Shown here: positions 6,464 through 62,013 of the stretch, in pieces
How positions within the stretch are numbered: position 1 is the stretch's first letter
How the letters are laid out: every line of letters begins with the position of its first letter
Assembly: GCA_964573615.1 (NCBI GenBank)
Contig: CAZNKD010000035.1
Coordinates: forward strand, 6,394 to 70,393
Origin: an uncultured Desulfobacterales bacterium
GTDB lineage: Bacteria; Desulfobacterota; Dissulfuribacteria; Dissulfuribacterales; QOAL01
Reading direction: 5' to 3'
Length of the DNA: 64,000 bases
Made by a program: the position numbers and the translations under genes
Notes under the pieces: generated by a model
Database searches by the model: none
Told to the model about the DNA's origin: nothing
The model's input: only the letters and a program-made list of their open reading frames with translations

Positions 6464-6496
6464 AGCCGGGTAGGGCTTGGCTCTTGATTTTCAGCC

Positions 6497-6509
6497 AATA
6501 ATAATTATT
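6497..6509. promoter_or_regulatory. Fur-box-like perfect palindrome AATAAT-A-ATTATT
   Basis: 6-1-6 perfect inverted repeat ~60 nt upstream of the cytochrome start. It resembles the GATAAT-N-ATTATC Fur core. Confidence 0.3.
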
Positions 6510-6569
6510 CACATAGATGGCCACTGTGTTACCATAATTAAAACAAACTTTACAAAAGGAGGAAGGTTT

Positions 6570-7880
6570 ATGATGAAGCGTGCCATGTTCGCAGGAGTGT
6601 TGTCTGCGGCCCTCATCGCCTTTGGAGGCATGATGGGTCAGGCCCAGGCAGCAGAGAATTGTATCGAGTGTCACAAGAAGGTGAGTCCCGGCCAGGTGAC
6701 GGACTGGAGTGTCAGCAAGCATGCCGAGAATGACATTACCTGTTCCGTCTGCCACGGCGAGGACCATCAGAGCGCCAAGGATGTCGACAAGGCTATCCTC
6801 CCTGACGAGCACAAGTGTGCCGAGTGTCATGAGGAGCAGTTCGAGTCCTTCAAGAAGGGTAAGCATCAGTTCGGTTGGACCTCACTCAATGCCCTGCCCA
6901 TCACCCATGTGGAGCCCGACACCCTCATGGAGGGCGGCAAGGGCTGCGGTGGATGTCACAACATGGGCATCAAGACCGAGGAGCAGAAGCAGGCCCAGAC
7001 CAAGTGGGGCCAGCGTTATCAGAACAACTCCTGTGACGAGTGCCACACCAGGCACAGCTTCTCAAAGAAGGAGGCGCAGGATCCCCAGGCCTGTCAGCAG
7101 TGCCACATGGGCTATGACCATCCCCAGTGGGAGATGTGGTCCAGCTCCAAGCACGGTTCCCGCTGGTTCGCCAAGCAGAGGGGCGCCCTGCCTGCAGATG
7201 CACAGGCCCCAACCTGCCAGACCTGTCACCTGCCCGATGGCACCCACAACAACAGGACTGCATGGGGCTTCTTGGGTGTAAGACTTCCTCTCCCCGAGGA
7301 TAAGCAGTGGGCAGCCGATCAGGTTACCATCCTGAAGGCCCTTGGCGTGCTCAATCCCGAGACCGGAAAGCCCACCGCAAGGCTGGATGCCGTAAAGGCC
7401 GTCCGTCTCGCCAGGCTCACCAAGGAGGAGTTCGACGAGGAGCGCAACAAGATGAAGGATCGCTGTGCCAAGTGCCACTCCAGGAACTATGTGGATAAGC
7501 AGTTCGAGATGGCAGACGAGGCCTTCAAGCAGGTCGATCATCTCCTGGCCGAGGGGATCAGGATAGTTGCAGGCCTCTACAAGGACGGCATCCTCAAGAA
7601 GAGGAACAGCCAGCCCTTTGCCTATCCAGACTTCCTCTACTTCATGAGGACCGATTACAGCGCAGCCAGTGGAGACAGCTACAAGAACCTGCCAGATGGC
7701 ATGAGCTATATCGAGCAGGTACTCTTCCAGATGTACATGAAGCACCGTATGCGTGCCTATCAGGGCTACTTCCACATGAACCCAGACTATGCCTACTGGT
7801 ACGGCTGGGCCATGATGACCAAGGATCTTGGACACATCAAGGAACTTGCCGCCGAGATGAGGGCCAGCCACAAGAAGTAA
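6570..7880 (+). CDS. periplasmic octaheme cytochrome c, hydroxylamine oxidoreductase (HAO)-like family
   Basis: RBS AAAGGAGGAAGG precedes ATG 6570. Signal peptide ends ...GQAQA/AE. Eight CxxCH motifs (CIECH, CSVCH, CAECH, CGGCH, CDECH, CQQCH, CQTCH, CAKCH). HAO-like stretch CHTRHSFS...CHMGYDHPQWEMWSSSKHG. The ORF track's upstream extension (6477) is not supported. Confidence 0.85.
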   Translation: MMKRAMFAGVLSAALIAFGGMMGQAQAAENCIECHKKVSPGQVTDWSVSKHAENDITCSVCHGEDHQSAKDVDKAILPDEHKCAECHEEQFESFKKGKHQFGWTSLNALPITHVEPDTLMEGGKGCGGCHNMGIKTEEQKQAQTKWGQRYQNNSCDECHTRHSFSKKEAQDPQACQQCHMGYDHPQWEMWSSSKHGSRWFAKQRGALPADAQAPTCQTCHLPDGTHNNRTAWGFLGVRLPLPEDKQWAADQVTILKALGVLNPETGKPTARLDAVKAVRLARLTKEEFDEERNKMKDRCAKCHSRNYVDKQFEMADEAFKQVDHLLAEGIRIVAGLYKDGILKKRNSQPFAYPDFLYFMRTDYSAASGDSYKNLPDGMSYIEQVLFQMYMKHRMRAYQGYFHMNPDYAYWYGWAMMTKDLGHIKELAAEMRASHKK

Positions 7881-21740: not shown

Positions 21741-22706
21741 TCAGTGGCCCAGGAGCCTGCCCAATACAAATCCGCCTACATATTTGATTGCCGTAAAGAG
21801 TACGCAGGCACAGAGGATCAGCTTTATTGCCTTGGCAGGCATGAACTTTTGCATCCTCGCCCCCAGATATGTCCCTGCTGTTCCTCCGATGCCGAACAAA
21901 AGGCCCAGCGTCCAGTCCGGGGCCACGGCCATTTCTGGATAGAACGGGGCCATGAGCTGGTAGAAGACGACTGCGGCAAGGGATGTTACAAATGTGCCCA
22001 TGAGGGCTGCTGCTGCAACGGAATAGACAGGCAGCCTGAAGAAGCTGACGAAGAAGGGCGCGATGATTGCGCCTCCGCCGATTCCGTACACCCCGCCTAT
22101 CAGCCCAACCACCAGACTCAGGGCGAATATGGCAGGGGCGCTGACAGAGAAGCCCTGTCCATAGAACTCATAGCTGATGCGATGGATCGAAAGGCTTTTT
22201 GTCCGTATGGGAGGCGTTTTTGCTTGCCCTCCGCCCCTGCGTCGCTCTTCCATGAGCCTTTTGAACCCCTCTTCGGCTTCCGTCTGCCTCTTCTTGCCCC
22301 TGTCCGTCCCGGCCCTTGTGAGATCCCTTGCAAGCCTCAGCCCGATATAGAGGAGCACCAGCCCCGCAAAGAACTTGAAGCTTGCCGGATCGGGCAGGAA
22401 TTCCACCCGGATCACAGCTCCTGCCAGGACCCCGGGCAGGGTGCCTGCCACAACCATCCAGGCAAGGGGCCAGACCATTCTGCCCTCCCTGATATACCTG
22501 AAAAGCCCTCCCGGAATGGCCACGATGTTGAATACGTGATTGGTGGCGCTCACCGATGGGCTTGTAAAGCCGAGCAGGCTCACCTGGAACGGAAGCAGCA
22601 GGAATGCACCTGAAACCCCTCCCATGGATGTAAAAAAGGATATGGTAAAGGCCACTGCCGGCGGGATCAGCGGATGGACCTCTATCCCTGCGGTTGGGAA
22701 ATACAC
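21741..22706 (-). CDS. TauE/SafE (DUF81) family anion exporter membrane protein
   Basis: 321 aa with a 4+4 TM layout and a basic central loop. Gly-rich helices (GLIGGVYGIGGGAII). Confidence 0.75.
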   Translation of the reverse strand: MYFPTAGIEVHPLIPPAVAFTISFFTSMGGVSGAFLLLPFQVSLLGFTSPSVSATNHVFNIVAIPGGLFRYIREGRMVWPLAWMVVAGTLPGVLAGAVIRVEFLPDPASFKFFAGLVLLYIGLRLARDLTRAGTDRGKKRQTEAEEGFKRLMEERRRGGGQAKTPPIRTKSLSIHRISYEFYGQGFSVSAPAIFALSLVVGLIGGVYGIGGGAIIAPFFVSFFRLPVYSVAAAALMGTFVTSLAAVVFYQLMAPFYPEMAVAPDWTLGLLFGIGGTAGTYLGARMQKFMPAKAIKLILCACVLFTAIKYVGGFVLGRLLGH

Positions 22707-22732: not shown

Positions 22733-23425
22733 TTACCTGGATCTTATCACATATGGGCAAGGATTTGGCTGGTCATCAGGATCTGTCCTGACCGGGCTGT
22801 AATCTGGCAGGGGCCCTCTTATCCTTGTGATGGCCTCCATCACCTTTTCCGGCTCTGCAGACGGAAAGAATATGGTCTTCTCCTCCTTCTGGGGTTGGGG
22901 CCTGTTGTCTTTCAGAAACCGTATCAGGTTCTGGACGCTCCCTTGGGGCTCTATGTAAGTGATCTCTATGCCTTTTCCCCTGAAGAAGGGGAGCCTGACC
23001 ACCTGTCTCCCGGATCCCTTTCGTGTGCCGGATTCATGAGGGGCGAGGCCGCCTTCATACTCCCTGATCCTGGCCGACCTGACATGGAACAGATCAATGA
23101 CGATGGGCTTGTCGCGGCCGTTTCCCCCTGGTACCACCAGTTTTCCCTTTTCGATCAGTATCGTGCATCTGAGCAGACAGAAGATGGCAATGGCCGGTAT
23201 GAGTGAGGCTGCTACTATAAAAGGGCCGGGAATGCCGAGCAGCAGGGCCTTGTAGAGGGCAGGAAGCATCGAGAGGGAAAAGGGCCTGTCTCCCCCTGAA
23301 AAGATCATGAAGACAGCTGCCGGACAGAGGGCTATCAGCCCCAGAAAGAGCGCAGTGCTCAGGCCTAGCCGGGCCAGCAAGGGGGCAAAAACCGTCTCTT
23401 TATAGCCATCTGTCTGTCTGGACAT
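22733..23425 (-). CDS. hypothetical membrane protein (N-terminal TM helices, soluble C-terminal domain)
   Basis: 230 aa with about three hydrophobic segments in the first 100 aa. I recognise no motif. Confidence 0.5.
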   Translation of the reverse strand: MSRQTDGYKETVFAPLLARLGLSTALFLGLIALCPAAVFMIFSGGDRPFSLSMLPALYKALLLGIPGPFIVAASLIPAIAIFCLLRCTILIEKGKLVVPGGNGRDKPIVIDLFHVRSARIREYEGGLAPHESGTRKGSGRQVVRLPFFRGKGIEITYIEPQGSVQNLIRFLKDNRPQPQKEEKTIFFPSAEPEKVMEAITRIRGPLPDYSPVRTDPDDQPNPCPYVIRSR

Positions 23426-29209: not shown

Positions 29210-29310
29210 GGGGCACGTGCCCTGAGGCTGTTTTTTAAGCCAGGATCCATCTTCAAAAGGGCCATGCGGACCGGATCCTTGAACATGCATGGTTGTGTTG
29301 GCGACCGACA

Positions 29311-30057
29311 ATGGCGGACATCCAGGACAGATCCATCTACCGCTCTTTGATGAGAAGGAGCGGGCTCGTTGCCTTTCAGGTGAGACATCTGGAGACGGAT
29401 CTCTATGTCCAGGCCCCCAGAGATTTGAGCAGGCAGGTCTCATCTTGGGTGGTGGAGGCAAGAAGGGCCATAGAGGCCTATGGTGCGGCCCATCCCGGTT
29501 TTTTTGCTGCCAAGCACCCCTTGCCGGAAGATCCGCTGACGCACCAGGTGGTAAGATCCATGCTCCATGCAGCCGCCCTTTCAGGCGTTGGCCCCATGGC
29601 GGCAGTGGCAGGTGCCATCGCCCAGCTGGTGTGCGAGCGGATAGTAGAGCTCACCGGTGGCGAGAGTGTTGTGGAAAATGGCGGGGATGTCTCCATGTAT
29701 CTGAAATCGGAGATGGTCGCAGGTATCTGGGCAGGAAAGGCATCCCCATTTTCAGGACGGGTCGGGATCAGGCTAAGGCCCGCATCCGGGGCTGGAAGTT
29801 TCATGGCCATCTGCACCTCCTCGGGTACGATCGGGCACTCTTTGAGCCTTGGAAGGGCAGATGCAGCAGTAGCAGTAGCGGACGATGCCGCCTTGGCAGA
29901 TGCCGCCGCCACAGGGGCCGGCAATCTGGTGCGCTCAAGGAGCGACATCGCCCGGGGCCTTGATTACATGTCGGCCATCTCTGGCATAACAGGGGGCGTG
30001 ATCATCAAGGCAGACCAGATCGGGGCTATCGGGGAGATAGAGCTGGTGCCGCTCTGA
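29311..30057 (+). CDS. UPF0280 family (ApbE-like) protein
   Basis: ATG 29311 gives 248 aa. Sequence YR...FQVRHLETDLYVQA...VGPMAAVAGAIAQ is typical of UPF0280. Confidence 0.7.
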   Translation: MADIQDRSIYRSLMRRSGLVAFQVRHLETDLYVQAPRDLSRQVSSWVVEARRAIEAYGAAHPGFFAAKHPLPEDPLTHQVVRSMLHAAALSGVGPMAAVAGAIAQLVCERIVELTGGESVVENGGDVSMYLKSEMVAGIWAGKASPFSGRVGIRLRPASGAGSFMAICTSSGTIGHSLSLGRADAAVAVADDAALADAAATGAGNLVRSRSDIARGLDYMSAISGITGGVIIKADQIGAIGEIELVPL

Positions 30058-40265: not shown

Positions 40266-41178
40266 ATGCCCCTACAAGGGCCAGAATCTTTCGAAAGGGT
40301 ATTTTTAGCCGTGCCACCACGTTATGGGTATGGATGCTCTCTATGCTGGTCGACTCGATCCTGACCGTGGCATCGGGATCTATCCTGTCTGAAAGGCGCC
40401 TTCCTGCAGAAGCTGCAAGCTCCCTTACAACATCCTCCACAAACTGGGGCCTTCTGTGCGCCTTTAGCACCAGTTCTGCCTCGTCTGGCCGTTTCAGAAG
40501 GCCCTGTATGATATGGAGACTCTCCTCTGCTGGCGTGAGGAGCTGTTCGAAATCGAGCCTGTCCAGCCGGTCGTTCACGAAAAATCTGGTGATGGTCCGC
40601 TGTGAATGGGTGGGCAGGGGCAGGGGGCTTCCTGCCCCTTCCAAAAGTGTGTCGTGATAGGCCTGGGTGCATGGGCAGGCGGTCATGTGCTCGATCTCGA
40701 TCCCGAGCTCCATCTGTTCATCTCCCTCCCCGCGGATCAGGTGCAGGAAGACCTTCAGTGACTCCACGGACTCCTTTTGGCTCACAGGTGCCCGTCTGGC
40801 AATGGGGATGAGGCCTGAAAGGCTGATCTCGATCTTCCCGCCCCGCTGGCGGCTCAATATGCGAGAGGCCAGGGTGCGGGCAAAGGCCTTGAGATCGGGA
40901 TAGGACTCGTGATAGGAGCGGCTTACGGCCTCCTCGATCCTGGACATATGAATGCCCCTGAACTCGGCAGGAAGACAGAGATATATGGATGCATCGAAGG
41001 CGAGCCTTCCCTGGGGCAGGTCCACCCAGAGCATGTTAGACTCGATCCCCACCGTTTGGATGGGAAGAGAAAGGGCCGGTGGCTGCTCAGGCACATCGAT
41101 GCCCTCTTTCAGGACCCTTTGATGCTCCTCTATCCCTATCTCCGTGCCTGCTCCTGGAGGGCCGTTTCTCTTCTTCAT
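40264..41178 (-). CDS. GTP cyclohydrolase, FolE2/MptA (type IB) family
   Basis: ATG 41178 gives 304 aa and forms an ATGA overlap with the upstream stop. Family motifs RGIHMSRI, HMTACPCT, PTHSQRT, LLKRPDEAELV, RPQFVEDVVRE, ESIHTHNVVA. Confidence 0.85.
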   Translation of the reverse strand: MKKRNGPPGAGTEIGIEEHQRVLKEGIDVPEQPPALSLPIQTVGIESNMLWVDLPQGRLAFDASIYLCLPAEFRGIHMSRIEEAVSRSYHESYPDLKAFARTLASRILSRQRGGKIEISLSGLIPIARRAPVSQKESVESLKVFLHLIRGEGDEQMELGIEIEHMTACPCTQAYHDTLLEGAGSPLPLPTHSQRTITRFFVNDRLDRLDFEQLLTPAEESLHIIQGLLKRPDEAELVLKAHRRPQFVEDVVRELAASAGRRLSDRIDPDATVRIESTSIESIHTHNVVARLKIPFRKILALVGA

Positions 41179-42017
41179 AGCAGTCTTTTCTCCTTGAGGG
41201 CACAGAACCAGTCCTGCACGCCCTGCCACTTGCCGGCCTCTTTCGTGATGAGTGCCATGTGGTCATCCAGCCAGGAAAGGAGCCCCTGTCTCAGGGCCGC
41301 CTCCTCCTCAGAAAGCCCTCTGGCCAGCTCCACAATCCTGCCCACGAGCCCCTTCAGGGCATCGGGGCTGCACCTGGTACTACAGAGGCTGCCTGCATGG
41401 AGCCTTCTTGTGGTGGCGATCTTTGGCACAAGCTCTATCGGGGACCTGGATGCCAGGGCGATGAAAAAGAGCCAGTCCTCTCCCAACGAAAGCCCTCTGC
41501 CATGATCCGGAAAGCCACCCGCCTCCAGAAATGTCTCTTTTCGGATGGCAAATGAAGAGGGCATGATATAGCACCACTTGAAGAGCAGCTCCAGGGCCCT
41601 TCCCTCCTCGATCTGCCGGCACAGCTCGTGGTCCGGCACCTCGAAGAGCGTGCCCGTGGCCATGTCTATGTTCTGGGTGATGCAAAAGGCGGCTTCCGCC
41701 CTGTCCAGGGCCTTTGAGAGGATGTCTGCATGGTCCTGGTGCCAGAGGTCGTCGGAGTCAAGGAACATGACGACCTCTCCACCGGCGGCCTCGACTCCCG
41801 CATTCCTGGCCGGGCCAGGGCCAAGGCCGCCGGTAGTTACGAGTGTGACCTCAGGAAAGAGGGCCCGGATCTCCTGGTCCGTGCCATCCCTCGAGCCATC
41901 ATCGACCACGATGATCTCCAGGGGGTCTGCCATCTCCTGGGCAAGCACGCTTCTTACCGCCTGGACGGTCATCTCCTTCCGGTCCCTGGTGGGTATGATG
42001 CAGGATATGGTAGGCAT
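41175..42017 (-). CDS. family 2 glycosyltransferase
   Basis: ATG 42017 gives 280 aa. GT-A motifs SCIIPTRDR, IIVVDDGSRDGT, MFLDSDDLW. Confidence 0.85.
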   Translation of the reverse strand: MPTISCIIPTRDRKEMTVQAVRSVLAQEMADPLEIIVVDDGSRDGTDQEIRALFPEVTLVTTGGLGPGPARNAGVEAAGGEVVMFLDSDDLWHQDHADILSKALDRAEAAFCITQNIDMATGTLFEVPDHELCRQIEEGRALELLFKWCYIMPSSFAIRKETFLEAGGFPDHGRGLSLGEDWLFFIALASRSPIELVPKIATTRRLHAGSLCSTRCSPDALKGLVGRIVELARGLSEEEAALRQGLLSWLDDHMALITKEAGKWQGVQDWFCALKEKRLL

Positions 42018-42034
42018 GGCGGTCACTTCGGTCC

Positions 42035-42793
42035 CTATGCGTTCGACTCTTGTCTGCCAGGCGGAAAGACCTCGGCGGCATCCCTGTGCCGTCCTTCCAG
42101 GATATGCTCTATGTAGGCCCTGACCCTGGGGATCATGTGATCGAGATAAGCCCCTATCTCCTTTTCCGTGGCACTGGTCTTGGTCTGGCAGAAGAGGCAT
42201 TTTCTCTCTCCTCCGCCTGTGGAGGGCAGGCCAAAGTCCTCCAGCAGGTGCCTTACCACATCCTCTGATGAGAATTCATCATAGACCGGAAACGCCGTGG
42301 TGACACCGAAGCCCTCTGAAAGGGCGGCCACCTTCTCCATGAAGACCCGGGTCTGTTCTGGATAGAATGACTGGCGCCTGGCATAGCCGGCAAGGATAAG
42401 GGGGACATAGTTCTGAACAGAGTATATGATGGCCTTGGTATGCATGGCCAGCTTGCAAGCCACACAGACCAGGTTCTTGCCACCGAACATTGGCATCAGC
42501 TCCTCGTACATGTCTAGCCACAGGCCCTGAAACAGCCGGCCGCAATCGAGCTCCACCAGATGGCTCTCCGGAAACTCCTCTGGCCTGGTGCTCTGGCCTC
42601 GGAGGATCCTTTCAGCCACCTGAAGCCTGGTGGCAGGGAAGTCCGGGAAGCGGCCCATGCCGTTCAGCATATGGAGGAGATGGACCCGTTTGGGCCTCGG
42701 GATCGCCGGGAAGTTTCCAAGGGCGGAAAGGGCATAGAGGGCCAGAGAGTCGCGTCCGCCTGAGTAGAGTATCGCCAAGTCCTGTCTGTCCAT
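42035..42793 (-). CDS. PP-loop (adenine nucleotide alpha-hydrolase superfamily) ATPase, specific function unknown
   Basis: 252 aa. N-terminal PP-loop AILYSGGRDSLAL plus two CxxC pairs (CVAC, CLFC). RBS AGGAG lies within the end of the upstream gene. Confidence 0.7.
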   Translation of the reverse strand: MDRQDLAILYSGGRDSLALYALSALGNFPAIPRPKRVHLLHMLNGMGRFPDFPATRLQVAERILRGQSTRPEEFPESHLVELDCGRLFQGLWLDMYEELMPMFGGKNLVCVACKLAMHTKAIIYSVQNYVPLILAGYARRQSFYPEQTRVFMEKVAALSEGFGVTTAFPVYDEFSSEDVVRHLLEDFGLPSTGGGERKCLFCQTKTSATEKEIGAYLDHMIPRVRAYIEHILEGRHRDAAEVFPPGRQESNA

Positions 42794-42802
42794 TTTTTCT
42801 GT

Positions 42803-43462
42803 TCACTCCTGCTCCTGCATGCCGTAGTCCACGGCATAACGGATAAATATCTCGCCAGACTCCAGGCTGACCTTGCACTCAAGTGGCCTGAGTCCTATGG
42901 AGGGCCTGCCAAGGGGTTCAGGCCCTTCGACCAGGCTGGAGACAGAAGAGGCACCGATTATCTCAGGGCATATAGTGACGAGGAGCTCATGGACCACCGC
43001 CTGGCTAAGGGCCTCGTAGTTCAGGGCGGATCCCCCCTCGATCAGCAGGCTCTCAACACCCCGTTCCGAAAGATGCTCCATGACCTCTCTGAGGTCGAGC
43101 CGTCCCGGCCCCATGTAACCTATCGGTATGATCTCTGCCCGTTGGCCCAGGGCCTGTTCAAGTGCCGGGCCTGCCTGCCTGGATGTGAATATCAAGGGCC
43201 TTGGCCCGCGGCTGAAAAGGGGCTGGTCCTCTGTCGGAATCCGGCCCGAGGCGGTTATTACCGCCCTTGTCCGCCCATCCAGTGTCCTGCCGCCTGGCCC
43301 AAGCATCTGGACCGGCCCCTGGCGCAGGGTGCCTGCCCCGATGAGGCTTGCATCAGTGTCTTCCCTCATCCGCTCCAGAAAGGCCCTGTCAACGGCACTT
43401 CCTTTGAAACCTTGGCCAATGCGGCCGCACACGGATGCGGCAGCAATTATGGATACCTTCAT
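42803..43462 (-). CDS. stand-alone RibD C-terminal-type (DHFR-fold) NAD(P)H reductase
   Basis: ATG 43462 gives 219 aa. Motifs SVCGRIG, DASLIGAGTLR, RAVITASGRIP, SLLIEGGSALN, VHELLVTICPEIIG. No deaminase domain. Confidence 0.8.
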   Translation of the reverse strand: MKVSIIAAASVCGRIGQGFKGSAVDRAFLERMREDTDASLIGAGTLRQGPVQMLGPGGRTLDGRTRAVITASGRIPTEDQPLFSRGPRPLIFTSRQAGPALEQALGQRAEIIPIGYMGPGRLDLREVMEHLSERGVESLLIEGGSALNYEALSQAVVHELLVTICPEIIGASSVSSLVEGPEPLGRPSIGLRPLECKVSLESGEIFIRYAVDYGMQEQE

Positions 43463-43713
43463 TACTATTACAGATACCACCTTGGCCTGAAAAAATACAG
43501 CGGCCCGATGATGTCGGGCCCCATTTGGCAAAGCGCACTTGTCAACTTCTGCCTTTGATGTTACAAAGACGGCCACTTGAAGCAGTGAAATATACACGTC
43601 CCACAGGCCTTGTGGTGCTGTCGCAATACGGGCGGCAGTAAATGGGGTCTATTTGCGCAGAGTCTCTGTGCTGAGGGACGGAAGAAAAACCACAAAAGAC
43701 GGAGGTAGCAGAA

Positions 43714-53508: not shown

Positions 53509-53850
53509 ATGAACATTCTGGTAATCGGCTGTGGTTCCTACATGGATGCAGGCTATGGCTGTCCTGGTGAATACAAGTGCATATCTGCCGTCAAGGAGAA
53601 GAACGGCGAGTTTGCCAAGTATGATGATCCGGTACTGGTCGGCTTCTTGAGGTGCCAGTGTCCCGGCCGGGCCACCATCAACAACATCGGTATGGTGATA
53701 AAGAACGTCAAGGTGGATGCCGTCCATCTGAGCAACTGCATGGTAAAGGCGCAGCCCATGTGCAAGAATCACGATTTCGAGCAGTTCAAGAAGATGGTGG
53801 AGGAGAAGTACGGGATCCCCTGTGTGCTCGGCACACACGCCTACGGTTAG
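53509..53850 (+). CDS. CGGC-domain protein (variant CQCPG motif)
   Basis: 113 aa with a strong RBS AAAGGAGGAG. Motifs ILVIGCGSY...GYGCPGE...LRCQCPGRA...HLSNCM. Confidence 0.65.
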   Translation: MNILVIGCGSYMDAGYGCPGEYKCISAVKEKNGEFAKYDDPVLVGFLRCQCPGRATINNIGMVIKNVKVDAVHLSNCMVKAQPMCKNHDFEQFKKMVEEKYGIPCVLGTHAYG

Positions 53851-54160: not shown

Positions 54161-55414
54161 ATGCTCGAACTGAAGAGGCTTAGACGCCGGGTGAAAGAGG
54201 CTGTTGAGAGGGCGGTCCCGGATGCCCGCATAGACTTTTGTCTCACCTGTGGTCTCTGCGTCAGCGGCTGTCCCGCCTCTGGTCTTGAAGGCCTCGATCC
54301 CAGGAAATTCCTGCGTCTTCTGGTGCTCGGCCAGGATCAGGAGATACTGGAGACCAACTGGATATACTCCTGTACCATGTGTCAGCGCTGCCGCTATGCA
54401 TGCCCCATGGGCATAGACATAGGCAGGATCGTCTATGAGCTGAGGGGTATGCGCCCCAGGGAGCAGCGCCCACCCAATCTCCAGCGCTCTTGTGATCTTC
54501 AGAAGGCCTCAAACAGCACCGGTATCCCCAACGAGGATTTCGTATGGGTGGTCGGTGACGTGCTGGAGGAGGTGCGCCAGAACGAGCCAGAGTGGAAGGA
54601 TCTCCAGGCGCCCATAGACAAAAAGGGGGCAAGATACTATCTGAACCAGAATGCCAAGGAGCCCACGGTAGAGCCGGAGGAGATGGTGCCGCTCTGGAAG
54701 ATCCTCCATGCGGCCGGTATAGACTGGACCTATTCTTCCAAGTGGTGGGACGGGGCCAACTACTGCCTGTTTACGGGGGACCCCGAAGACTGGGAATACA
54801 CGGTCAGGAAGCAGGCCGAGACAGTGGATGCCCTTGGATGCCGATATTACATAAACACGGAGTGAGGCCACATGTTCTACGCGACCCTGGAGGGGTTGCG
54901 AAGGTTCAAGATCCCGCACAACTTCGAATTCGTTAGCATAATCACCCTCTATGCCGAGTGGATCAGACAGGGGAGACTCAAGGTCTCATCGAGCTGGAAC
55001 AGCCAGGGACTCAAGTTCACGGTCCAAGACCCTTGCAAGCTGGTCCGCCAGGGCCTGGGAGACTCTGTGGCCGAGGACCTAAGATTCGTGATCAAGAAGG
55101 TGGTAGGAGAGGAGAACTTCATAGACGTCTGGCCAAGACTCAGCAACAACTACTGTTGCGGAGGCGGTGGAGGGGCCCTCCAGGCAGGATTCGTGGAGAA
55201 CAGGAGGCGCTATGGCAGACGCAAGTTCGACCAGCTTGCGGCCACCGGCGCCGATGTGGTGATCACCCCGTGCCACAACTGCCATACCCAGGTGGCTGAC
55301 ATCTGTGAGTACTATGGCGGTGGCTGGAAGACCACCCACCTTTGGAACTGGCTGGAAAAGGCCCTGGTCCTCGATGGTGGCGGGCCGGAAGGGGAGGGGC
55401 ACAGAGATGGCTGA
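54161..55414 (+). CDS. HdrD/DsrK/GlpC-like Fe-S protein (2x[4Fe-4S] + two CCG domains), probable selenoprotein with in-frame UGA at 54863-54865
   Basis: ORFs 54161-54865 and 54872-55414 are in the same frame, separated only by TGA-GGC-CAC. The UGA falls where the first CCG domain should have its terminal Cys (YINTE-U-GHMFYATL, compared with VITPCHNCHTQV in the second domain). Also present: CLTCGLCVSGCP, CTMCQRCRYACP and NYCCGGGGG. A hairpin lies 15 nt downstream. Confidence 0.65.
54880..54900 (+). promoter_or_regulatory. candidate bacterial SECIS hairpin
   Basis: 8-bp stem CGCGACCC/GGGTTGCG (one G-U pair) with loop UGGAG. The stem starts 15 nt after the UGA. Confidence 0.45.
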
Positions 55415-58400
55415 TCTGTCCGGCTCTGTCCTGGTTGTAGGCGGCGGGATTTCCGGCGTCCAGGCAGCTCTCGATCTCGCAGACAGCGGATTCTATGTCC
55501 ACCTGGTGGAGCGCGGCCCTGCCATCGGAGGGGCCATGAGCCAGCTGGACAAGACCTTTCCCACCAATGACTGCTCTGCATGCATCTTGTCACCGAAGCT
55601 GGTGGAATGCGGCCGGCATCTCAACATAAATCTTCTGACCCTCTCCCAGGTGGAGGCACTGGAGGGAGGGCCTGGCCGGTTCAAGGTGCGTGTGCGCCAG
55701 ATGCCCCGCTATGTGGACACAGACAAGTGCATAGCCTGCGGGGCCTGTGCGGAAAAATGCCCCAAGAAGGTGCCAAGCCAGTTCGATCTCGGCCTTGGAA
55801 CCAGAAAGGCCATCTATCTCCAGTATCCCCAGGCGGTTCCCCTTAAATATGCCATCGACCCGGAACAGTGCATCTGGCTCAGAAAGCCGGGTCGATGCGG
55901 TGCCTGTGTAAAGGCGTGTCCTTCCGGGGCCATAAACTTCGATGACAAGCAAAGGGTACACGATCTCACGGTGGGCAGCGTGATACTTGCCCCGGGATTC
56001 AGGCCCTTTGATCCGTCAGGGCTGGATTTTCTGGGCTACAAGAGCCTTGACAATGTCATCACATCCATGGAGTTCGAGCGTATCCTGAGCCCTTCGGGCC
56101 CCTTCAAGGGGCACATGGTGCGGCCCTCTGATGGCAAAGAGCCAAGGAGGATCGCCTGGCTCCAGTGTGTCGGATCCCGGGACATAAACAGGGCCTGCCA
56201 CGGATACTGCTCCTCCGTATGCTGCATGTATGCAGTAAAGCAGGCCTTCATTGCAAGGGAGCATGCCAAGGGCCAGGGGCTCGACACAGAGATCTTCTTC
56301 ATGGATATGCGTACCCACGGCAAGGGGTTCGAGTCCTATTACCAGCGGGCCAGACAGGAGGGCATACTCTTTCGGCGTGCCAGGGTGCACACCATCCTGC
56401 CGGACAGGGAGTCCGAGGGAGGTCTTGTGCTCACCTGGGGCGATGAAGAGGGCAAGATACATGAATCCCGCTTCGATATGGTGGTCCTGTCCGTGGGCCT
56501 GGAGCCGGATCCTGAGGTCATGGCGCTCTCTGAGCGGCTGGGTGTGGAGCTCGATCCGGACATGTTCGTCCTTACAGAAGGCTTCAGCCCTGTGGCCACC
56601 TCAAGGCCGGGAATTTTCGTATGCGGGGCGGCCTCTGAGCCAAAGGATATCCCCCAGTCCGTCATGGAGGCCAGCGCTGCAGCCCTTGAGGCAGAGAGGC
56701 TTCTGTCTCCGGCGAGATGGAGTGAGACCAAAACACCGGAATATCCCCCTGAGAGGGACGTGTTTTCCGAACCGCCCAGGATCGGGGTCTTTGTCTGTTC
56801 CTGCGGCATCAATATCGGCTCTGTGGTGGATGTAGAGCGGGTGTGTGACTATGCAAAGGGGCTGCCCGGTGTGGTCTTTGCCCAGACAAATCTCTTCACA
56901 TGCTCCCAGGACACCATAAACCAGATGGCCGAAACCGTGAGAAGGCAGAGACTGAACAGGGTCGTGGTGGCTTCCTGCACACCGAGGACCCACGAGCCCC
57001 TGTTCCAGGAGACGCTGCGCGAGGCGGGGATAAACAAGTATCTCTTCGAGATGGCCAATATCAGGGATCAGGACTCATGGGTGCATCAGTCAGATCCCGA
57101 GGCTGCCACCAGGAAGGCCATGGATCTCGTGCGCATGGCTGTTGCCAAGGTTCGGGGAGACCAGCCCCTGGCCTACAACACCATCCAGGTGATAAAGGAG
57201 GCCCTTGTGGTGGGGGGCGGGGTGGCTGGCATGACTGCCGCACTCAGTCTGGCAGATCAGGGCTTTCCCGTGACCCTCGTAGAGAGGGAGGCCCGCCTCG
57301 GGGGCTGGGCCAGGAGCCTTTTTCATACAAGCAGCAGGGAGCCGGTGCAGAAAGAGCTGGCAAATCTCATCTCAAAGGTGGAAGCGCATAGCCGGATCTC
57401 AGTAAAGACGGGCGTTACGGTCAAGGATGTGTCTGGCTCCGTGGGCCGTTTTTCAACCTCACTTTCAGACGGCAGCTCGGTGGAGCACGGGGTGGCCATA
57501 GTTGCGGTCGGTGCCGAGCCCTGGCTGCCCGAGCCAGGCTCACCCCACAGCTATCTCTATGGAGTCCACCCAGGTGTACGAACCCTGCTGGAGGTGGATC
57601 AGGCCCTGATATCGGGCGAAGGCCTGCCGGAGGAGCTCAAACAGGCGGTCTTCATACACTGTGTGGGCTCTCGCATCCCGGAGCGGCCCTACTGCTCAAG
57701 GGTGTGCTGTAGCCACGCCATAGAGCAGGCCCTTGCCCTCAAGGATCGGAATCCGGATCTTGAGATATTCATGCTCTATCGGGATATCCGTACCTATGGA
57801 AGACGCGAATATCTCTATCAGGAGGCCAGAAGGCGCGGCATCATCTTCATCAGATATGACCTTGAGGAGCCTCCCCAGGCGGCCATGGCCCAGGGAGAAG
57901 CCGGCCAGGAACTGGTTGTACGTGTGAAGGACCACGTCCTTGGCAGGCCTGTGGAGCTAAGGCCGGAGCTGCTGGTGCTCGCCACTGCAATCACGCCCCG
58001 CAGGGATTCCGGGGCCCTTGCCCAGTTCTTCAAGTGTGCCACCGGATCAGACGGTTTCCTGCTCGAGGCCCATATGAAGCTCAGGCCAGTGGATTTTGCC
58101 ACAGACGGGGTCTTTCTTGCCGGACTGTGCCACTATCCAAAGCCCATAGAGGAGACCATCGCCCAGGCCAAGGCCGCGGCCTCCAGGGCAGGGCTCATCC
58201 TCTCCAAGGACCATGTCCCGGCAGAGAGCATAACCGCAGAGGTGAACCGGGCCAAATGTACAGGGTGCGGGGTGTGTGAAAGGGTGTGCGCCTATCATGC
58301 GGTTGCCGTAGATCCGGCATCGGGCAGTGCAGTGGTGGACAGTGCCATGTGCAAGGGATGCGGGGCCTGTGTGGCAGGGTGCAGGTCTGATGCGATCACC

Positions 58401-58469
58401 CTCAAGAACATGGGCAACGAGCAGATAATGGCCGAGGTGGAGGCTGTTGTGGACGAATGGATCCTGTAG
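55407..58469 (+). CDS. large HdrA-like flavoprotein/Fe-S protein with two FAD-binding modules
   Basis: ATG 55407 overlaps the upstream stop (ATGGCTGA) and gives 1020 aa. Two Rossmann motifs (VLVVGGGISGVQAALDLADSG and ALVVGGGVAGMTAALSLADQG). Also HdrA NDCSACILSPK, CVGSRD twice, and four ferredoxin CxxCxxCxxxCP motifs. Confidence 0.88.
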   Translation: MADLSGSVLVVGGGISGVQAALDLADSGFYVHLVERGPAIGGAMSQLDKTFPTNDCSACILSPKLVECGRHLNINLLTLSQVEALEGGPGRFKVRVRQMPRYVDTDKCIACGACAEKCPKKVPSQFDLGLGTRKAIYLQYPQAVPLKYAIDPEQCIWLRKPGRCGACVKACPSGAINFDDKQRVHDLTVGSVILAPGFRPFDPSGLDFLGYKSLDNVITSMEFERILSPSGPFKGHMVRPSDGKEPRRIAWLQCVGSRDINRACHGYCSSVCCMYAVKQAFIAREHAKGQGLDTEIFFMDMRTHGKGFESYYQRARQEGILFRRARVHTILPDRESEGGLVLTWGDEEGKIHESRFDMVVLSVGLEPDPEVMALSERLGVELDPDMFVLTEGFSPVATSRPGIFVCGAASEPKDIPQSVMEASAAALEAERLLSPARWSETKTPEYPPERDVFSEPPRIGVFVCSCGINIGSVVDVERVCDYAKGLPGVVFAQTNLFTCSQDTINQMAETVRRQRLNRVVVASCTPRTHEPLFQETLREAGINKYLFEMANIRDQDSWVHQSDPEAATRKAMDLVRMAVAKVRGDQPLAYNTIQVIKEALVVGGGVAGMTAALSLADQGFPVTLVEREARLGGWARSLFHTSSREPVQKELANLISKVEAHSRISVKTGVTVKDVSGSVGRFSTSLSDGSSVEHGVAIVAVGAEPWLPEPGSPHSYLYGVHPGVRTLLEVDQALISGEGLPEELKQAVFIHCVGSRIPERPYCSRVCCSHAIEQALALKDRNPDLEIFMLYRDIRTYGRREYLYQEARRRGIIFIRYDLEEPPQAAMAQGEAGQELVVRVKDHVLGRPVELRPELLVLATAITPRRDSGALAQFFKCATGSDGFLLEAHMKLRPVDFATDGVFLAGLCHYPKPIEETIAQAKAAASRAGLILSKDHVPAESITAEVNRAKCTGCGVCERVCAYHAVAVDPASGSAVVDSAMCKGCGACVAGCRSDAITLKNMGNEQIMAEVEAVVDEWIL

Positions 58470-58495: not shown

Positions 58496-58987
58496 ATGGG
58501 AGCTGAAAGGGAAAATTCCGGGACAGGCGGACAGTGGGAGCCCAGGATAGTGGCCTTCCTGTGCAACTGGTGCAGTTATGCCGGTGCAGATCTGGCAGGT
58601 GTGAGCAGGCTCCAATATCCGCCCTATATCAGGATTGTCCGGGTCCCCTGTTCCGGCAGGGTGAGCGCCCAGCTCATCCTGGATGCCTTCAGGGCCGGTG
58701 CAGATGGTGTATGGGTCTCTGGTTGTCATCCGGGTGATTGTCACTATATCAGTGGCAACCTGTATGCCAGGCGCCGGTTCGTGCTTCTGAGGCGGTTTCT
58801 GGAGTTCGTGGGGATTGAGCCTGGAAGACTCCATTTTTCTTGGATTTCTGCATCCGAAGGAGAGAAGTTTGCCCAGACGGCGGCCAGGGTTGCCGAAGAG
58901 GTAAAGGCCCTTGGCCCCTCCAGGCGACTTGTCAAGAGATTCGATCCGCAGGGGAGGGTGATCCCGGCGGAACAGGTCACAGGATAG
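58496..58987 (+). CDS. MvhD/FlxD-like [2Fe-2S] electron-transfer subunit
   Basis: 163 aa with IVAFLCNWCSYAGADLAG...VPCSGRV...GADGVWVSGCHPGDCHY. Confidence 0.88.
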   Translation: MGAERENSGTGGQWEPRIVAFLCNWCSYAGADLAGVSRLQYPPYIRIVRVPCSGRVSAQLILDAFRAGADGVWVSGCHPGDCHYISGNLYARRRFVLLRRFLEFVGIEPGRLHFSWISASEGEKFAQTAARVAEEVKALGPSRRLVKRFDPQGRVIPAEQVTG

Positions 58988-58995
58988 GGGAGCTG

Positions 58996-60117
58996 ATGGC
59001 AGGTGCTGAGAGGAAAAAGGGCCGGGACGTGAACCGGGAGATCACCCAGGAGCTCAGAAAGAGGGCGGCGGCTCTCCTGGCCTCTGGCGATATAGCGGCC
59101 TTTGTGGGCTTCAGGATCGGCAGCCATCCCATGATCATGCGTCCCTTTGTGGCAAGGAGCCCGGAGGAGGCGGAGAGGCTCGTCTGGAACAGCTTCTGTG
59201 TCATAAATCTGGCCAACTATCTGCCTGGACTCCTCAGGTCCCTGGAGCCGCCGAGGCGGCCGGGAGATCCGCCGCCGGAAGGCCCTCTGCCAAAGGTTGG
59301 GGTCGTGGCAACAGGGTGCTGGTCCAGGAACATGGTTGTCCAGATCCAGGAGAACCAGATTCAGAGGCAGCGGGTGGTGATAATCGGGATCCCCAGCCGC
59401 GGCATGATCGACCGCAGGAAGGTGGAGCTTGCGGCAGAAGGGGCCGAGATAACCGGGGTTCAGGAAGGTCAGCACAAGCTCAAGGTCTCCACCAGCCGGG
59501 GAGAGATCGAGCTGAATCGCTGGGATCTCGTCAGGGACAACTGCCTTACGTGTCAGCGGCCGGATCCAGTGATCTATGACGAGATGATCGGTCAACCCCA
59601 GTGGGAGAGAAAGGTTTCAGAGCCCTTCAGACAGGTGGAGGAGATAGAGGCCCTTGATCCGGATGAGCGATGGGCGTGGTTCACACAGGAGATCTCATCC
59701 TGCATCCGCTGCTATGCCTGCAGGAATGCCTGCCCCCTCTGCTACTGCCCTACCTGTTTCGTGGACGACTCCCGCCCGCAATGGGTGGGAAAGAGCAGAG
59801 AGCCTGTGGATACCGCCCTCTTTCATATCCTGAGGGCCTATCACTGTGCCGGCCGTTGCACGGACTGCGGTACCTGTGAAAGTGTCTGCCCCATGGGGAT
59901 CAAGATGAGGCTCCTTACGAGGAAACTCCAGAAAGACGTGAAGGAGCTCTATGGATTCGAGCCTGGCCTGAGCCTGGAAGAGCCCCTTCCCTTGTCTACA
60001 TACAGGCCGGATGATCCGGAGCCCTATTTCGACATAAGGCCCGTTGACGAATCCCCGAAGCCGGTCTCTGGCGGCGGAGGGGCCGGAGAAGGAGATATGG
60101 GGAGGCAAAAAGGATGA
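58996..60117 (+). CDS. Fe-S subunit, AsrA/HydB/FlxC-like
   Basis: ATG 58996 gives 373 aa. Motifs CIRCYACRNACPLCYCPTCF and CTDCGTCESVCPMGI. Confidence 0.7.
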   Translation: MAGAERKKGRDVNREITQELRKRAAALLASGDIAAFVGFRIGSHPMIMRPFVARSPEEAERLVWNSFCVINLANYLPGLLRSLEPPRRPGDPPPEGPLPKVGVVATGCWSRNMVVQIQENQIQRQRVVIIGIPSRGMIDRRKVELAAEGAEITGVQEGQHKLKVSTSRGEIELNRWDLVRDNCLTCQRPDPVIYDEMIGQPQWERKVSEPFRQVEEIEALDPDERWAWFTQEISSCIRCYACRNACPLCYCPTCFVDDSRPQWVGKSREPVDTALFHILRAYHCAGRCTDCGTCESVCPMGIKMRLLTRKLQKDVKELYGFEPGLSLEEPLPLSTYRPDDPEPYFDIRPVDESPKPVSGGGGAGEGDMGRQKG

Positions 60118-61163
60118 ACAGCCAGTCCTCCCGGTACACCAAGGTGGATGAAGGGGCCTTGCGCACTTGGCTGTCGCGTCTTGGAGGGCAGACCAGGGTC
60201 TTTGCTCCAAAGAGCGGGCCCAAAGGGATCGTTGACTGGGCGGAACTGGATGATGGGGGGCTTCCCGATCTGGACCTTGGCCTTCCCTTGAACTCCATCA
60301 AGGTCTTCTATTTTCCCCAGCCGGAGATACTCTTTACCTTCAACGCAAGGCCGGGCCAGCCCGACTCTTTCAGGCTCAGAGAGCCGGAAGAAGCGGGTGG
60401 GGAGATTGTGCTGGCAGGGGTGAGGCCGTGCGATGCAAGGAGCATCACCCTAAACAGCCTGCCATATGCCGAGGACCCCTACTTTCAGGCCCGGACAGAC
60501 AGGCTTTATGTCATAGGTTTTCCCTGTATGGAGGGCTGTTCCACCTGTTTCTGCTCATGGGTCGGAGGGGGGCCGGGCAGTACGGATGGGATGGATGTGG
60601 CGGTCTGGCAGATGCCGGGAGGCCACTTCGTTATAGAGGCCGTTACCGAAAAGGGCGGCAAGCTGATGGAAGGGCTCCATGGGGCTGGCCCTGTGGCCGA
60701 GCCCTCGGAAGAGGAGCTTCTGCACATAGAACAGTGGCGCAAGAAGGGCCTAGGCCAGGCGGGGGAAGATCCATCCCTTTCCATGCGGCACAAGGATCTC
60801 ATGGCCTGTTACCAGGCGCCCTTCTGGCAGCAGGTGGCCGATTGCTGCATCAACTGTGGCACCTGTACATTCCTGTGCCCCACCTGCTACTGTTTCGACA
60901 TACAGGATGAAAAGGCCCGTGGCATCGGCCGCAGGATACGTTACTGGGACTCCTGCATGTTCCCGCTGTTCACTCAGCACGCCTCTGGCCACAATCCCAG
61001 GGGAGAGAAGATAAAGAGGGTGAGAAACCGCTTCATGCACAAATTCAAATACTTTGTCGACCGGTTCGGGCCATTGTCCTGTGTAGGCTGTGGCCGCTGC
61101 ATCAGGCAGTGCCCGGTGAACATAGATGTCAGAGAGGTCCTGCGCGACCTGCTTGCCCTGTGA
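60114..61163 (+). CDS. Fe-S subunit, AsrA/HydB/FlxB-like
   Basis: 349 aa with an ATGA overlap. Motifs CINCGTCTFLCPTCYCFD and CVGCGRCIRQCPVNID. Confidence 0.7.
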   Translation: MNSQSSRYTKVDEGALRTWLSRLGGQTRVFAPKSGPKGIVDWAELDDGGLPDLDLGLPLNSIKVFYFPQPEILFTFNARPGQPDSFRLREPEEAGGEIVLAGVRPCDARSITLNSLPYAEDPYFQARTDRLYVIGFPCMEGCSTCFCSWVGGGPGSTDGMDVAVWQMPGGHFVIEAVTEKGGKLMEGLHGAGPVAEPSEEELLHIEQWRKKGLGQAGEDPSLSMRHKDLMACYQAPFWQQVADCCINCGTCTFLCPTCYCFDIQDEKARGIGRRIRYWDSCMFPLFTQHASGHNPRGEKIKRVRNRFMHKFKYFVDRFGPLSCVGCGRCIRQCPVNIDVREVLRDLLAL

Positions 61164-61164
61164 G

Positions 61165-62013
61165 ATGACGGACAGATCCATGAACCCATACAGACCCTAT
61201 CCTGCCCGCATAGAAGAGGTCATCGTCGAGACCGAAGACGGTAACCTGAAGAGCTTCAGGATCGTGCTGGAAGACGAGGCGGATATGGCCGCATGGAGTC
61301 ATGTGCCGGGCCAGTTCGCCATGTTGAGTCTGGCGGGAAAGGGAGAGATACCCATAGGCATTGCCTCCTCCCCAACGGAACGGGACCATCTGCTCTTTAC
61401 GGTGAACAGGGCCGGTGTGGTGACCACGGCCCTGCACCAGATGGAGGCGGGTGATCCCATAGGGGTCCGGGGCCCTCTTGGCAATGGTTTTCCCGTGGCG
61501 AGTGAGCTCAAGGGAAAGAACATAGTCATAATCGCAGGCGGATTTGCCTTCACCACCCTCAGGGCCACATTGATCTATATGCTGGAGCACCGTTCGGACT
61601 ACGGGGAGATAACGGTGATATACGGGGCCAGGACCCCCGGCATGCTCCTCTACAAGGACGAGCTTGCCAAGTGGCAAGAGCGGGATGACCTGAATCTCCA
61701 TATCACCGTAGACAGGGAGGCCCCGGGCTGGAACGGGCTGGTAGGGTTCGTTCCAACCATAGCCGGCCAGGTGAAGCCGTCGCCTGAAAATGCTGCGGCC
61801 CTCATCTGTGGTCCTCCAATAATGATAAAGTTCACCATGCCTCCGCTGGAGGAGATCGGCTGGAGGGATGAGCAGGTCTATCTCTCCCTGGAGAACCGGA
61901 TGAAGTGCGGCATAGGTATCTGTGGGCACTGCAATGTGGGGCCGGTGTATGTCTGCAAGGATGGTCCGGTATTCACCAGGGCCCAGGTGCAGAGGCTGCC
62001 TGTTGAGTTTTGA
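61165..62013 (+). CDS. FAD/NAD(P)-binding oxidoreductase with C-terminal [2Fe-2S] (AsrB/PyrK/HydG/FlxA-like)
   Basis: Start is ATG 61165 (2 nt after the upstream stop) or ATG 61180. Motifs PGQFAMLS, IVIIAGGFAFTTL, and the C-terminal CGIGICGHCNVGPVYVCKDGPVF. Confidence 0.8.
   Translation: MTDRSMNPYRPYPARIEEVIVETEDGNLKSFRIVLEDEADMAAWSHVPGQFAMLSLAGKGEIPIGIASSPTERDHLLFTVNRAGVVTTALHQMEAGDPIGVRGPLGNGFPVASELKGKNIVIIAGGFAFTTLRATLIYMLEHRSDYGEITVIYGARTPGMLLYKDELAKWQERDDLNLHITVDREAPGWNGLVGFVPTIAGQVKPSPENAAALICGPPIMIKFTMPPLEEIGWRDEQVYLSLENRMKCGIGICGHCNVGPVYVCKDGPVFTRAQVQRLPVEF

Follow-up and report, generated by a model that had tools for sequence, protein, structure and literature searches.

A probable selenocysteine codon with its own recoding hairpin in an HdrD-like iron–sulfur oxidoreductase gene of an uncultured Desulfobacterales bacterium

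We analyzed a 64,000-nucleotide stretch of DNA (the window) from an uncultured Desulfobacterales bacterium (contig CAZNKD010000035.1 of assembly GCA_964573615.1, positions 6,394 to 70,393 of the forward strand), in which the plus-strand interval 54161–55414 is given in the public annotation as two open reading frames (ORFs) of 234 and 180 amino acids (aa). As the initial annotation had described, the ORFs at 54161–54865 and 54872–55414 have a common frame, and the gap between them consists of TGA GGC CAC only. The TGA at 54863–54865 ends the first ORF, GGC CAC follows, and the ATG at 54872 remains in frame up to the stop at 55412–55414. Reading through the TGA gives a protein of 417 residues (417 codons plus stop), and homologs that span the full length of this protein have 405–434 aa. 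The comparative data point to recoding of UGA 54863, which is almost certainly a selenocysteine (Sec) codon accompanied by its own recoding hairpin. The same-frame ORFs, the domains, and the full-length homologs all argue for one selenoprotein gene on the plus strand at 54161–55414, encoding an HdrD-like (HdrC+HdrB fusion) iron–sulfur (Fe-S) oxidoreductase with the predicted peptide YYINTE-U-GHMFYATLEGLR across the UGA.

The 417-aa protein is an HdrD-type fusion of an HdrC-like and an HdrB-like part. The HdrC-like ferredoxin part (54236–54418, residues 25–86; Pfam Fer4_17 and Fer4_8) carries two CxxCxxCxxxCP motifs for two cubane [4Fe-4S] clusters. Fer4_17 scores 43 bits, and the N-terminal part of the protein matches HdrC from the PDB at E ~1e-17 in a profile search of solved structures. 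In the C-terminal part, the CCG domain (55019–55294, residues 287–378; Pfam CCG, 44.8 bits) aligns to the C-terminal CCG domain of HdrB, which is also what this part matches in the structure-profile search, and its motif is intact (C292, C332, C333, C371, and C374). The N-terminal CCG-like domain, by contrast with this intact motif, is degenerate, with C202 and U235 (in U235-G-H237) as the sole survivors. Cys202 (54764–54766, in N-Y-C), the only other Cys that this domain retains, is invariant and was recognized from the invariant columns and from an internal repeat comparison that sets GANYC-LFTG of the first domain against SNNYCCGGGG of the second. Residue 235 (54863–54865, motif N-T-E-U-G-H) is assigned as Sec from the Cys found in protein homologs and the TGA, TGC, or TGT found at genome loci, and His237 of the U-G-H motif (54869–54871) is again an invariant column. 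In a weak alignment, U235 falls on the first Cys of "TEC-NG-C", which belongs to the N-terminal CCG domain of HdrB. The TGA had been taken to lie at the terminal Cys of the CCG pattern; the column corresponds instead to the first Cys of the ancestral CxxC of that N-terminal domain.

The HdrC- and HdrB-like structure matches, together with an AlphaFold2 model made for P0001, a Cys homolog 74% identical to the HdrD-like protein, establish the HdrD-type fusion. The nearest structure to this model, which has a predicted local distance difference test score of 89, is Mycobacterium smegmatis EtfD (PDB 9ojn; template modeling score 0.70 on the query, E = 1e-10), followed by HdrB chains. Among curated family models, those of HmcF, TmcB, and DsrK score best, and their match runs contiguously across the TGA.

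We searched about 5.8 billion predicted proteins with the HdrD-like protein and obtained 2089 matches, of which the best 120 were inspected; these are full-length proteins of 391–532 aa that span the junction. The column of TGA 54863 is Cys in 120/120 of these best-matching homologs, and the surrounding E-C-G-H is invariant among them, in the context NTE-C-GH. Because gene callers cut Sec genes in two, collections of predicted proteins are biased toward Cys forms, and DNA was therefore examined, with each GTDB species represented by a single genome. At the 80 best-matching loci, nearly all from Desulfobacterota, the codon at the position of 54863 is TGA in 63 cases and TGC or TGT in 17, an agreement well above what chance would give. 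Protein identity to the window gene at these loci is 52–84%, with conservation on both sides of the TGA. A neighbor-joining tree of 81 sequences requires at least five switches between Sec and Cys. The proposal of Sec in an HdrD/GlpC-like protein thus stands on Cys in every inspected protein homolog, TGA at most of the matching loci, and a hairpin found only in the TGA forms; the ortholog column that was to tell Cys from UGA holds both. Also, the Met at U+3, which had been regarded as an unusual partner in a CxxC pair, occupies a position that varies family-wide (E/V/I/S/M), and the conserved motif is [U/C]-G-H.

A nonsense change from TGC to TGA in a decaying gene, or an error of assembly or sequencing, would need a single base to differ, and the metagenome source of the sequence is in keeping with it. 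However, the identical TGA occurs in two assemblies with separate sample accessions (ENA ERZ27262694 and JGI 3300028908) and TGA recurs in 63 other species, both halves of the gene are kept at 50–85% identity, and the hairpin is intact and compensated clade by clade. We therefore give a pseudogene or an error a vanishingly small probability. The UGA might also be decoded without Sec-tRNA(Sec), through a reassigned code in which UGA means Gly or Trp or through readthrough by a near-cognate tRNA(Cys/Trp). Cys is functional at this site in 17 relatives, and the window showed no sel genes, both of which would fit such decoding. TGA, however, stops 22 of the 44 Pfam-supported window genes and is the commonest stop among them, so the code is standard and the recoding local, which excludes reassignment. 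Moreover, a conserved hairpin of the selenocysteine insertion sequence (SECIS) type is specific to the TGA forms, and the closest cultured relative is a documented Sec-utilizer, which makes decoding as anything other than Sec highly improbable. This relative, Desulfolithobacter dissulfuricans GF1, has an N-terminal half-protein (WP_267928161.1) that is 85% identical and has the same ...YINTE end, and it is on a list of Sec-utilizing bacteria with 22 selenoprotein genes (PMC12013277).

In public collections the gene and its orthologs appear as two "Fe-S binding" ORFs, and clustering at 90% identity gives 54 N-terminal and 27 C-terminal halves. Examples of the names under which such entries are deposited are "4Fe-4S dicluster domain-containing protein" for WP_267928161.1 and "hypothetical protein" in Thermodesulfatator. 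In a Desulfonatronospira metagenome-assembled genome, a divergent second paralog (L051:3433, plus strand) lies upstream of the main ortholog and has an in-frame TGA at this motif (YPE*GHAYYATRF) with a CCG motif downstream. One protein homolog, P0107 (EMS81429.1, Desulfotignum phosphitoxidans), is named "oxidoreductase, selenocysteine-containing" and was considered as direct evidence for Sec, but was rejected, as in the deposited sequence of 427 aa the Sec column holds Cys and U is absent. The name seems to have been carried over from a Sec-containing relative.

Downstream of the TGA lies a predicted bacterial SECIS hairpin (54880–54900, plus strand), identified by folding, covariation, and the criteria for bacterial SECIS (bSECIS) elements. 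Its stem is formed by 54880–54888 and 54892–54900 around the apical loop GGA (54889–54891); this pairing of 9 bp with a 3-nt loop has an alternative of 8 bp with the 5-nt loop UGGAG. The published bSECIS criteria are a loop of 3–9 nt, a stem of 4–16 bp, a G in the first two loop positions, 16–37 nt from the UGA to the loop, and a minimum free energy of −7.5 kcal/mol or lower (PMC13188914). The window hairpin has the loop GGA, a 9-bp stem, a UGA-to-apical-loop spacing of 23 nt, and a folding energy of −14.6 kcal/mol, all within these limits. That energy, calculated for the 25-nt element alone, corresponds to z = −4.55, and 0/200 shuffled sequences were equally stable, while a wider stretch of 63 nt is unexceptional on folding (z = −0.61).

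A hairpin in the same register is present in 64/64 TGA-type sequences and in 0/16 of the Cys-type sequences folded. We examined covariation in A2, an ungapped alignment of 63 distinct TGA-type sequences. Pairing in the TGA forms is 88% over all nine pairs and 99% over the seven core pairs, versus 51% for the core in Cys forms. Both sides have changed at five stem pairs, for example GC to AU or the reverse at columns 31–43, UA and CG at 32–42, and GC and UA at 35–39. The covariation score was 0.296 versus 0.154 in shuffled alignments, a value reached by 0/500 of them, and sliding the 3′ arm by 1–3 columns as a control lowered pairing to 16–43%. In the apical loop, the first base (G36) is invariant and the second (G37) is at least 90% conserved across the 63 sequences. 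The suggestion that the hairpin is compatible with a bacterial SECIS therefore holds for the family as well as for the window. A Cys form with TGC (L006:8700–8745), 75% identical and nested in the clade of the window gene, has a decayed stem, GCGACCACCGAGGGGTTG, with an energy of −5.5 kcal/mol, which looks like the fossil of a recent conversion from Sec to Cys. Rfam models at the gathering threshold found three tRNAs only and no SECIS match in the whole window, and at E <= 10 the interval 54700–55050 gave only one chance snoRNA match.

The stem also has a coding side. At window positions 54878–54900 (A2 columns 25–47) the TGA forms encode A/S-V/T/I-R/L-x-G-L (GCA GUC CGG GNC GGA CUG), and the Cys forms have mostly Y-x-x-W at the same position. 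The SECIS constrains the protein, and where Sec is used, a Trp present in most Cys forms is lost.

The only serious alternative to Sec is re-initiation at ATG 54872. In that case the locus would hold two real genes: the TGA would be the true stop of an HdrC-like protein, and an HdrB-like protein would start at the ATG by coupling or re-initiation through the GGAG. Both elements exist, the GGAG at 54859–54862 lying 9 nt before the ATG as had been noted. TGA is the most frequent stop in the window, the gene callers and NCBI annotate two ORFs, and HdrC and HdrB of methanogens are separate subunits. Against these points, the stop falls within a domain and on an invariant catalytic Cys column, and an N-terminal product would be without half of its CCG-like domain. 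Among the TGA-type genes, the third codon past the TGA is ATG in 5/64, and any ATG within 10 codons occurs in 8/64. The GGAG is simply the codons of the invariant Thr-Glu and is found in Cys forms too. Moreover, two genes would leave a covarying hairpin restricted to TGA forms without explanation. We consider two separate genes very unlikely.

Where does the Sec residue lie in the protein, and what might it do there? The T/GECGH motif has been defined for HdrD relatives that have one non-cubane cluster, such as DsrK (PMC10861901). In the cryo-electron microscopy structure of DsrMKJOP, DsrK Cys329 is no iron ligand; it has the substrate cysteine on one side and the single non-cubane cluster on the other, bears a persulfide, and passes sulfur on to the cluster, and the nearby His331 is a probable proton relay (bioRxiv 10.64898/2026.08.25.746951). 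Sec235 sits at the T/GECGH cysteine position of DsrK, HmcF, and TmcB, the T-E-U-G-H of the window being the Sec version of the motif, and His237 is the counterpart of DsrK His331, with the same proposed role. Since T-E-U-G-H is T/GECGH with Sec, we infer for Sec235 a role as the residue that attacks or relays next to the single cluster. The most useful point added here is that the Sec appears to fall on the DsrK-type catalytic cysteine; selenocysteine is not mentioned in the two DsrK papers (PMC10861901 and bioRxiv 10.64898/2026.08.25.746951). The N-terminal motif is cut down to C202 and U235, which rules out the binding of a second non-cubane cluster of the HdrB type. Sec235 is thus probably not a cluster ligand but a free catalytic residue next to the single non-cubane cluster. 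The initial annotation had placed the Sec in a non-cubane cluster or disulfide-reducing site; a redox residue next to the single cluster is the part of that idea that is probable, and a ligand of the cluster is improbable given the degenerate N-terminal CCG domain.

A possible sequence of events can be outlined from these comparisons. The SECIS at 54880–54900, which lies within the coding sequence, would recruit SelB with Sec-tRNA(Sec) to a ribosome paused at the UGA, and translation would continue past it into the CCG domain. In the folded protein, Sec235 would act as a nucleophile and most likely attack a disulfide, trisulfide, or persulfide substrate. The Se-S intermediate formed in this way, possibly resolved by Cys202, would be reduced by the adjacent non-cubane cluster, with His237 as proton relay, on electrons supplied by co-encoded components: the HdrA-like flavoprotein, the MvhD adaptor, and the Flx-like NAD(P)H module. 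Homology and gene context suggest this catalytic role, this kind of substrate, and this electron path. More specifically, the Sec may be a selenium version of the DsrK-Cys329-type sulfur relay, and not an iron ligand, working through a selenenylsulfide or perselenosulfide that Cys202 perhaps resolves; we hold this tentatively, at slightly less than an even chance.

Several points weigh against the overall interpretation. No tRNA-Sec, selA, selB, or selD was found in the 64-kb window by ARAGORN, by scanning about 50 ORFs with Pfam and NCBIfam models, or by Rfam. In the clade of the window gene, an ATG with GGAG upstream follows the TGA, so some termination with re-initiation may take place. The proposed equivalence of Sec235 and DsrK Cys329 draws on the shared motif, the contiguous hidden Markov model matches, and the weak HdrB alignment, and not on a structure. 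With regard to the substrate, the related BamD hands electrons to an electron-transferring flavoprotein, and no disulfide is reduced. Taken as a whole, a single gene at 54161–55414, with its UGA read as Sec and with the catalytic and electron-transfer roles that homology suggests, is very probably the best explanation.

The selenoprotein family has been known since the mid-2000s, and the window gene is a mis-annotated new member. An Fe-S oxidoreductase (GlpC)-like selenoprotein goes back to Kryukov & Gladyshev 2004, as cited in PMC13188914, a 2026 review that itself lists an Fe-S oxidoreductase-like selenoprotein with the Sec motif UGH. A GlpC selenoprotein was found in glpC-hdrA-frhD operons (Zhang et al. 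2006; PMC1794560), and hdrD4 is listed as a selenoprotein gene of Desulfobacterium autotrophicum (PMC2702500). The Sec-containing Hdr-related or GlpC-like oxidoreductases mentioned in the initial annotation thus include a published family, whose U-G-H motif is the one seen here. The window gene shares with the (GlpC)-like UGH family this motif, the combination of a di-cluster ferredoxin with CCG, the occurrence in Desulfobacterota, and hdrA and mvhD/frhD as neighbors. However, the described operons continue with frhG-frhA, whereas the window and its closest relatives continue with Flx-like genes. GlpC proper was rejected as an identity for the protein, with scores of 44 versus a cut-off of 278 (PRK11168) and 30 versus 280 (TIGR03379) and no glpA or glpB nearby; "GlpC" is only the historical label of the selenoprotein family.

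Comparing the window protein with DsrK, HmcF, and TmcB, it has the same arrangement of one complete CCG motif and a degenerate one that keeps the cysteine and histidine of E-C-G-H, and the catalytic Cys of that group is likewise proposed as a sulfur relay beside the cluster. However, the window protein is soluble and is encoded without a membrane cytochrome b partner of the DsrM/HmcE/TmcC type, its neighbors being HdrA-like, MvhD, and Flx-like. Its family has the extra invariant Cys202, and Sec in most members. The last Cys of the CCG motif, kept in the window protein, is Asp in many DsrK. Assignment to DsrK, HmcF, or TmcB proper was rejected, as the scores are below the equivalog cut-offs (HmcF 181/750, TmcB 171/735, and DsrK 135/400).

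Methanogen HdrBC and HdrD (PDB 5ODC and others) share the HdrC-like and HdrB-like folds, with Sec235 on the first Cys of the HdrB "TEC-NG-C". However, in HdrB the CX(n)CCGX(n)CXXC motif occurs twice in full and binds two non-cubane clusters, whereas the N-terminal motif of the window protein amounts to C202 and U235. HdrB/HdrD proper was likewise rejected, with a TIGR03288 score of 20 versus a cut-off of 345 and one complete CCG motif where HdrB has two. The BamDEF part of class II benzoyl-CoA reductase resembles the window system in the degenerate distal non-cubane site of BamD and in BamE, a fused double HdrA, but genes for BamBC, the tungsten-containing aldehyde oxidoreductase component, are not found near the window gene. 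EtfD of M. smegmatis is the best structural match of the P0001 model and also a sequence-profile match (E = 8e-10), but the identity is 19%, and EtfD, at ~1040 aa, is a membrane protein.

Downstream on the plus strand, a 1020-aa HdrA-like flavoprotein is encoded at 55407–58469 (HdrA2 model, 975 bits), with two FAD/Rossmann regions and several 4Fe-4S motifs, and its start and the stop of the selenoprotein gene overlap (ATGGCTGA). An MvhD/FlpD-like adaptor follows at 58496–58987 (Pfam FlpD, 183 bits; VhuD model) in its Cys form (CNWC). Three FlxC/FlxB/FlxA-like genes of the sulfhydrogenase beta/gamma type come next (58996–62013; Pfam and NCBIfam models) and encode a 373-aa Fe-S protein, a 349-aa HydB-like protein (Fer4_22), and a 277-aa HydG-like FAD/NAD(P)-binding protein, a trio that is presumed to be an NAD(P)H input module. 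This gene order is kept in the closest loci (L003–L006, L009, and L019), and most of the related loci with enough flanking sequence show HdrA-like and/or MvhD-like matches. The HdrA-like and MvhD genes are without in-frame TGA, and within this gene set of the window Sec is confined to the HdrD-like gene.

Similar sets of genes, the Flx-Hdr clusters that sulfate reducers carry, have been described as the FlxABCD-HdrABC system (Ramos et al. 2015, as cited in PMC5947623) and as the Hdr/Flox cluster of S. fumaroxidans, in which an HdrD (Sfum_1969) takes the place of HdrBC (PMC5947623). Compared by gene content, both share HdrD-like, large HdrA-like, MvhD-like, and FlxCBA-like genes with the window. 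The neighborhood thus suggests a complex of the Flx-Hdr type with HdrD in place of HdrBC, and the likely setting is a soluble complex linked to NAD(P)H and perhaps capable of electron bifurcation.

The FAD/Rossmann regions of the HdrA-like protein lie at residues ~6–46 and ~597–705 and recall the fused double HdrA of BamE, and the NCBIfam model "diclust_near_Sec" also matches the protein weakly. The selenoprotein gene is closely preceded, at 53509–53850, by a gene for a 113-aa CGGC-domain protein (PF08821). A 42% identical CGGC-domain protein lies upstream of the L076 ortholog, and it may be a partner, a substrate, or a coincidence.

Pairs of Sec and Cys forms normally mark redox-active catalytic residues. 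The presence of Sec on the T/GECGH cysteine would support the proposal that this residue, and no second cluster, carries out the sulfur chemistry in Hdr relatives that have one non-cubane cluster, and it makes a natural "selenium-boosted" version of the residue open to study. If the sulfur-relay reading is true, at least five switches between Sec and Cys would be independent evolutionary evidence that the T/GECGH residue is a redox-active nucleophile in the whole group of DsrK, HmcF, TmcB, and HdrD-like proteins. In addition, protein catalogs misrepresent the family: Cys forms make up 120/120 of the predicted proteins inspected, whereas the Sec form is the majority in DNA (63/80 best-matching loci).

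The rest of the window, from 1 to 53500, is made up of ordinary housekeeping functions: rho, prfA-prmC, a multihaem cytochrome c (6477–7880), rimP-nusA-infB-truB-pnp, gyrA, gpsA, a 7TMR-DISM hybrid histidine kinase, enolase, rpsB-tsf-pyrH-frr-uppS-cdsA-dxr-rseP, and three tRNAs (Pro, Gly, and Pro). The long ORFs at 33–1418, 21744–22613, 22733–23425 (minus strand), and 29289–29963 matched no Pfam family at E <= 1e-5, and some of them may be spurious ORFs of GC-rich DNA. A scan for other selenoprotein genes in the window, as two ORFs of one frame with a single TGA between them, was uninformative: owing to the GC-rich DNA it returned 114 candidates. At 42035–43597 on the minus strand, a RibD_C ORF (42803–43597) and a 252-aa ORF without a Pfam match (42035–42793) lie in one frame with TGA and three codons between them; these are probably adjacent or spurious ORFs, because the 252-aa ORF overlaps a glycosyltransferase gene at 41175–42200.

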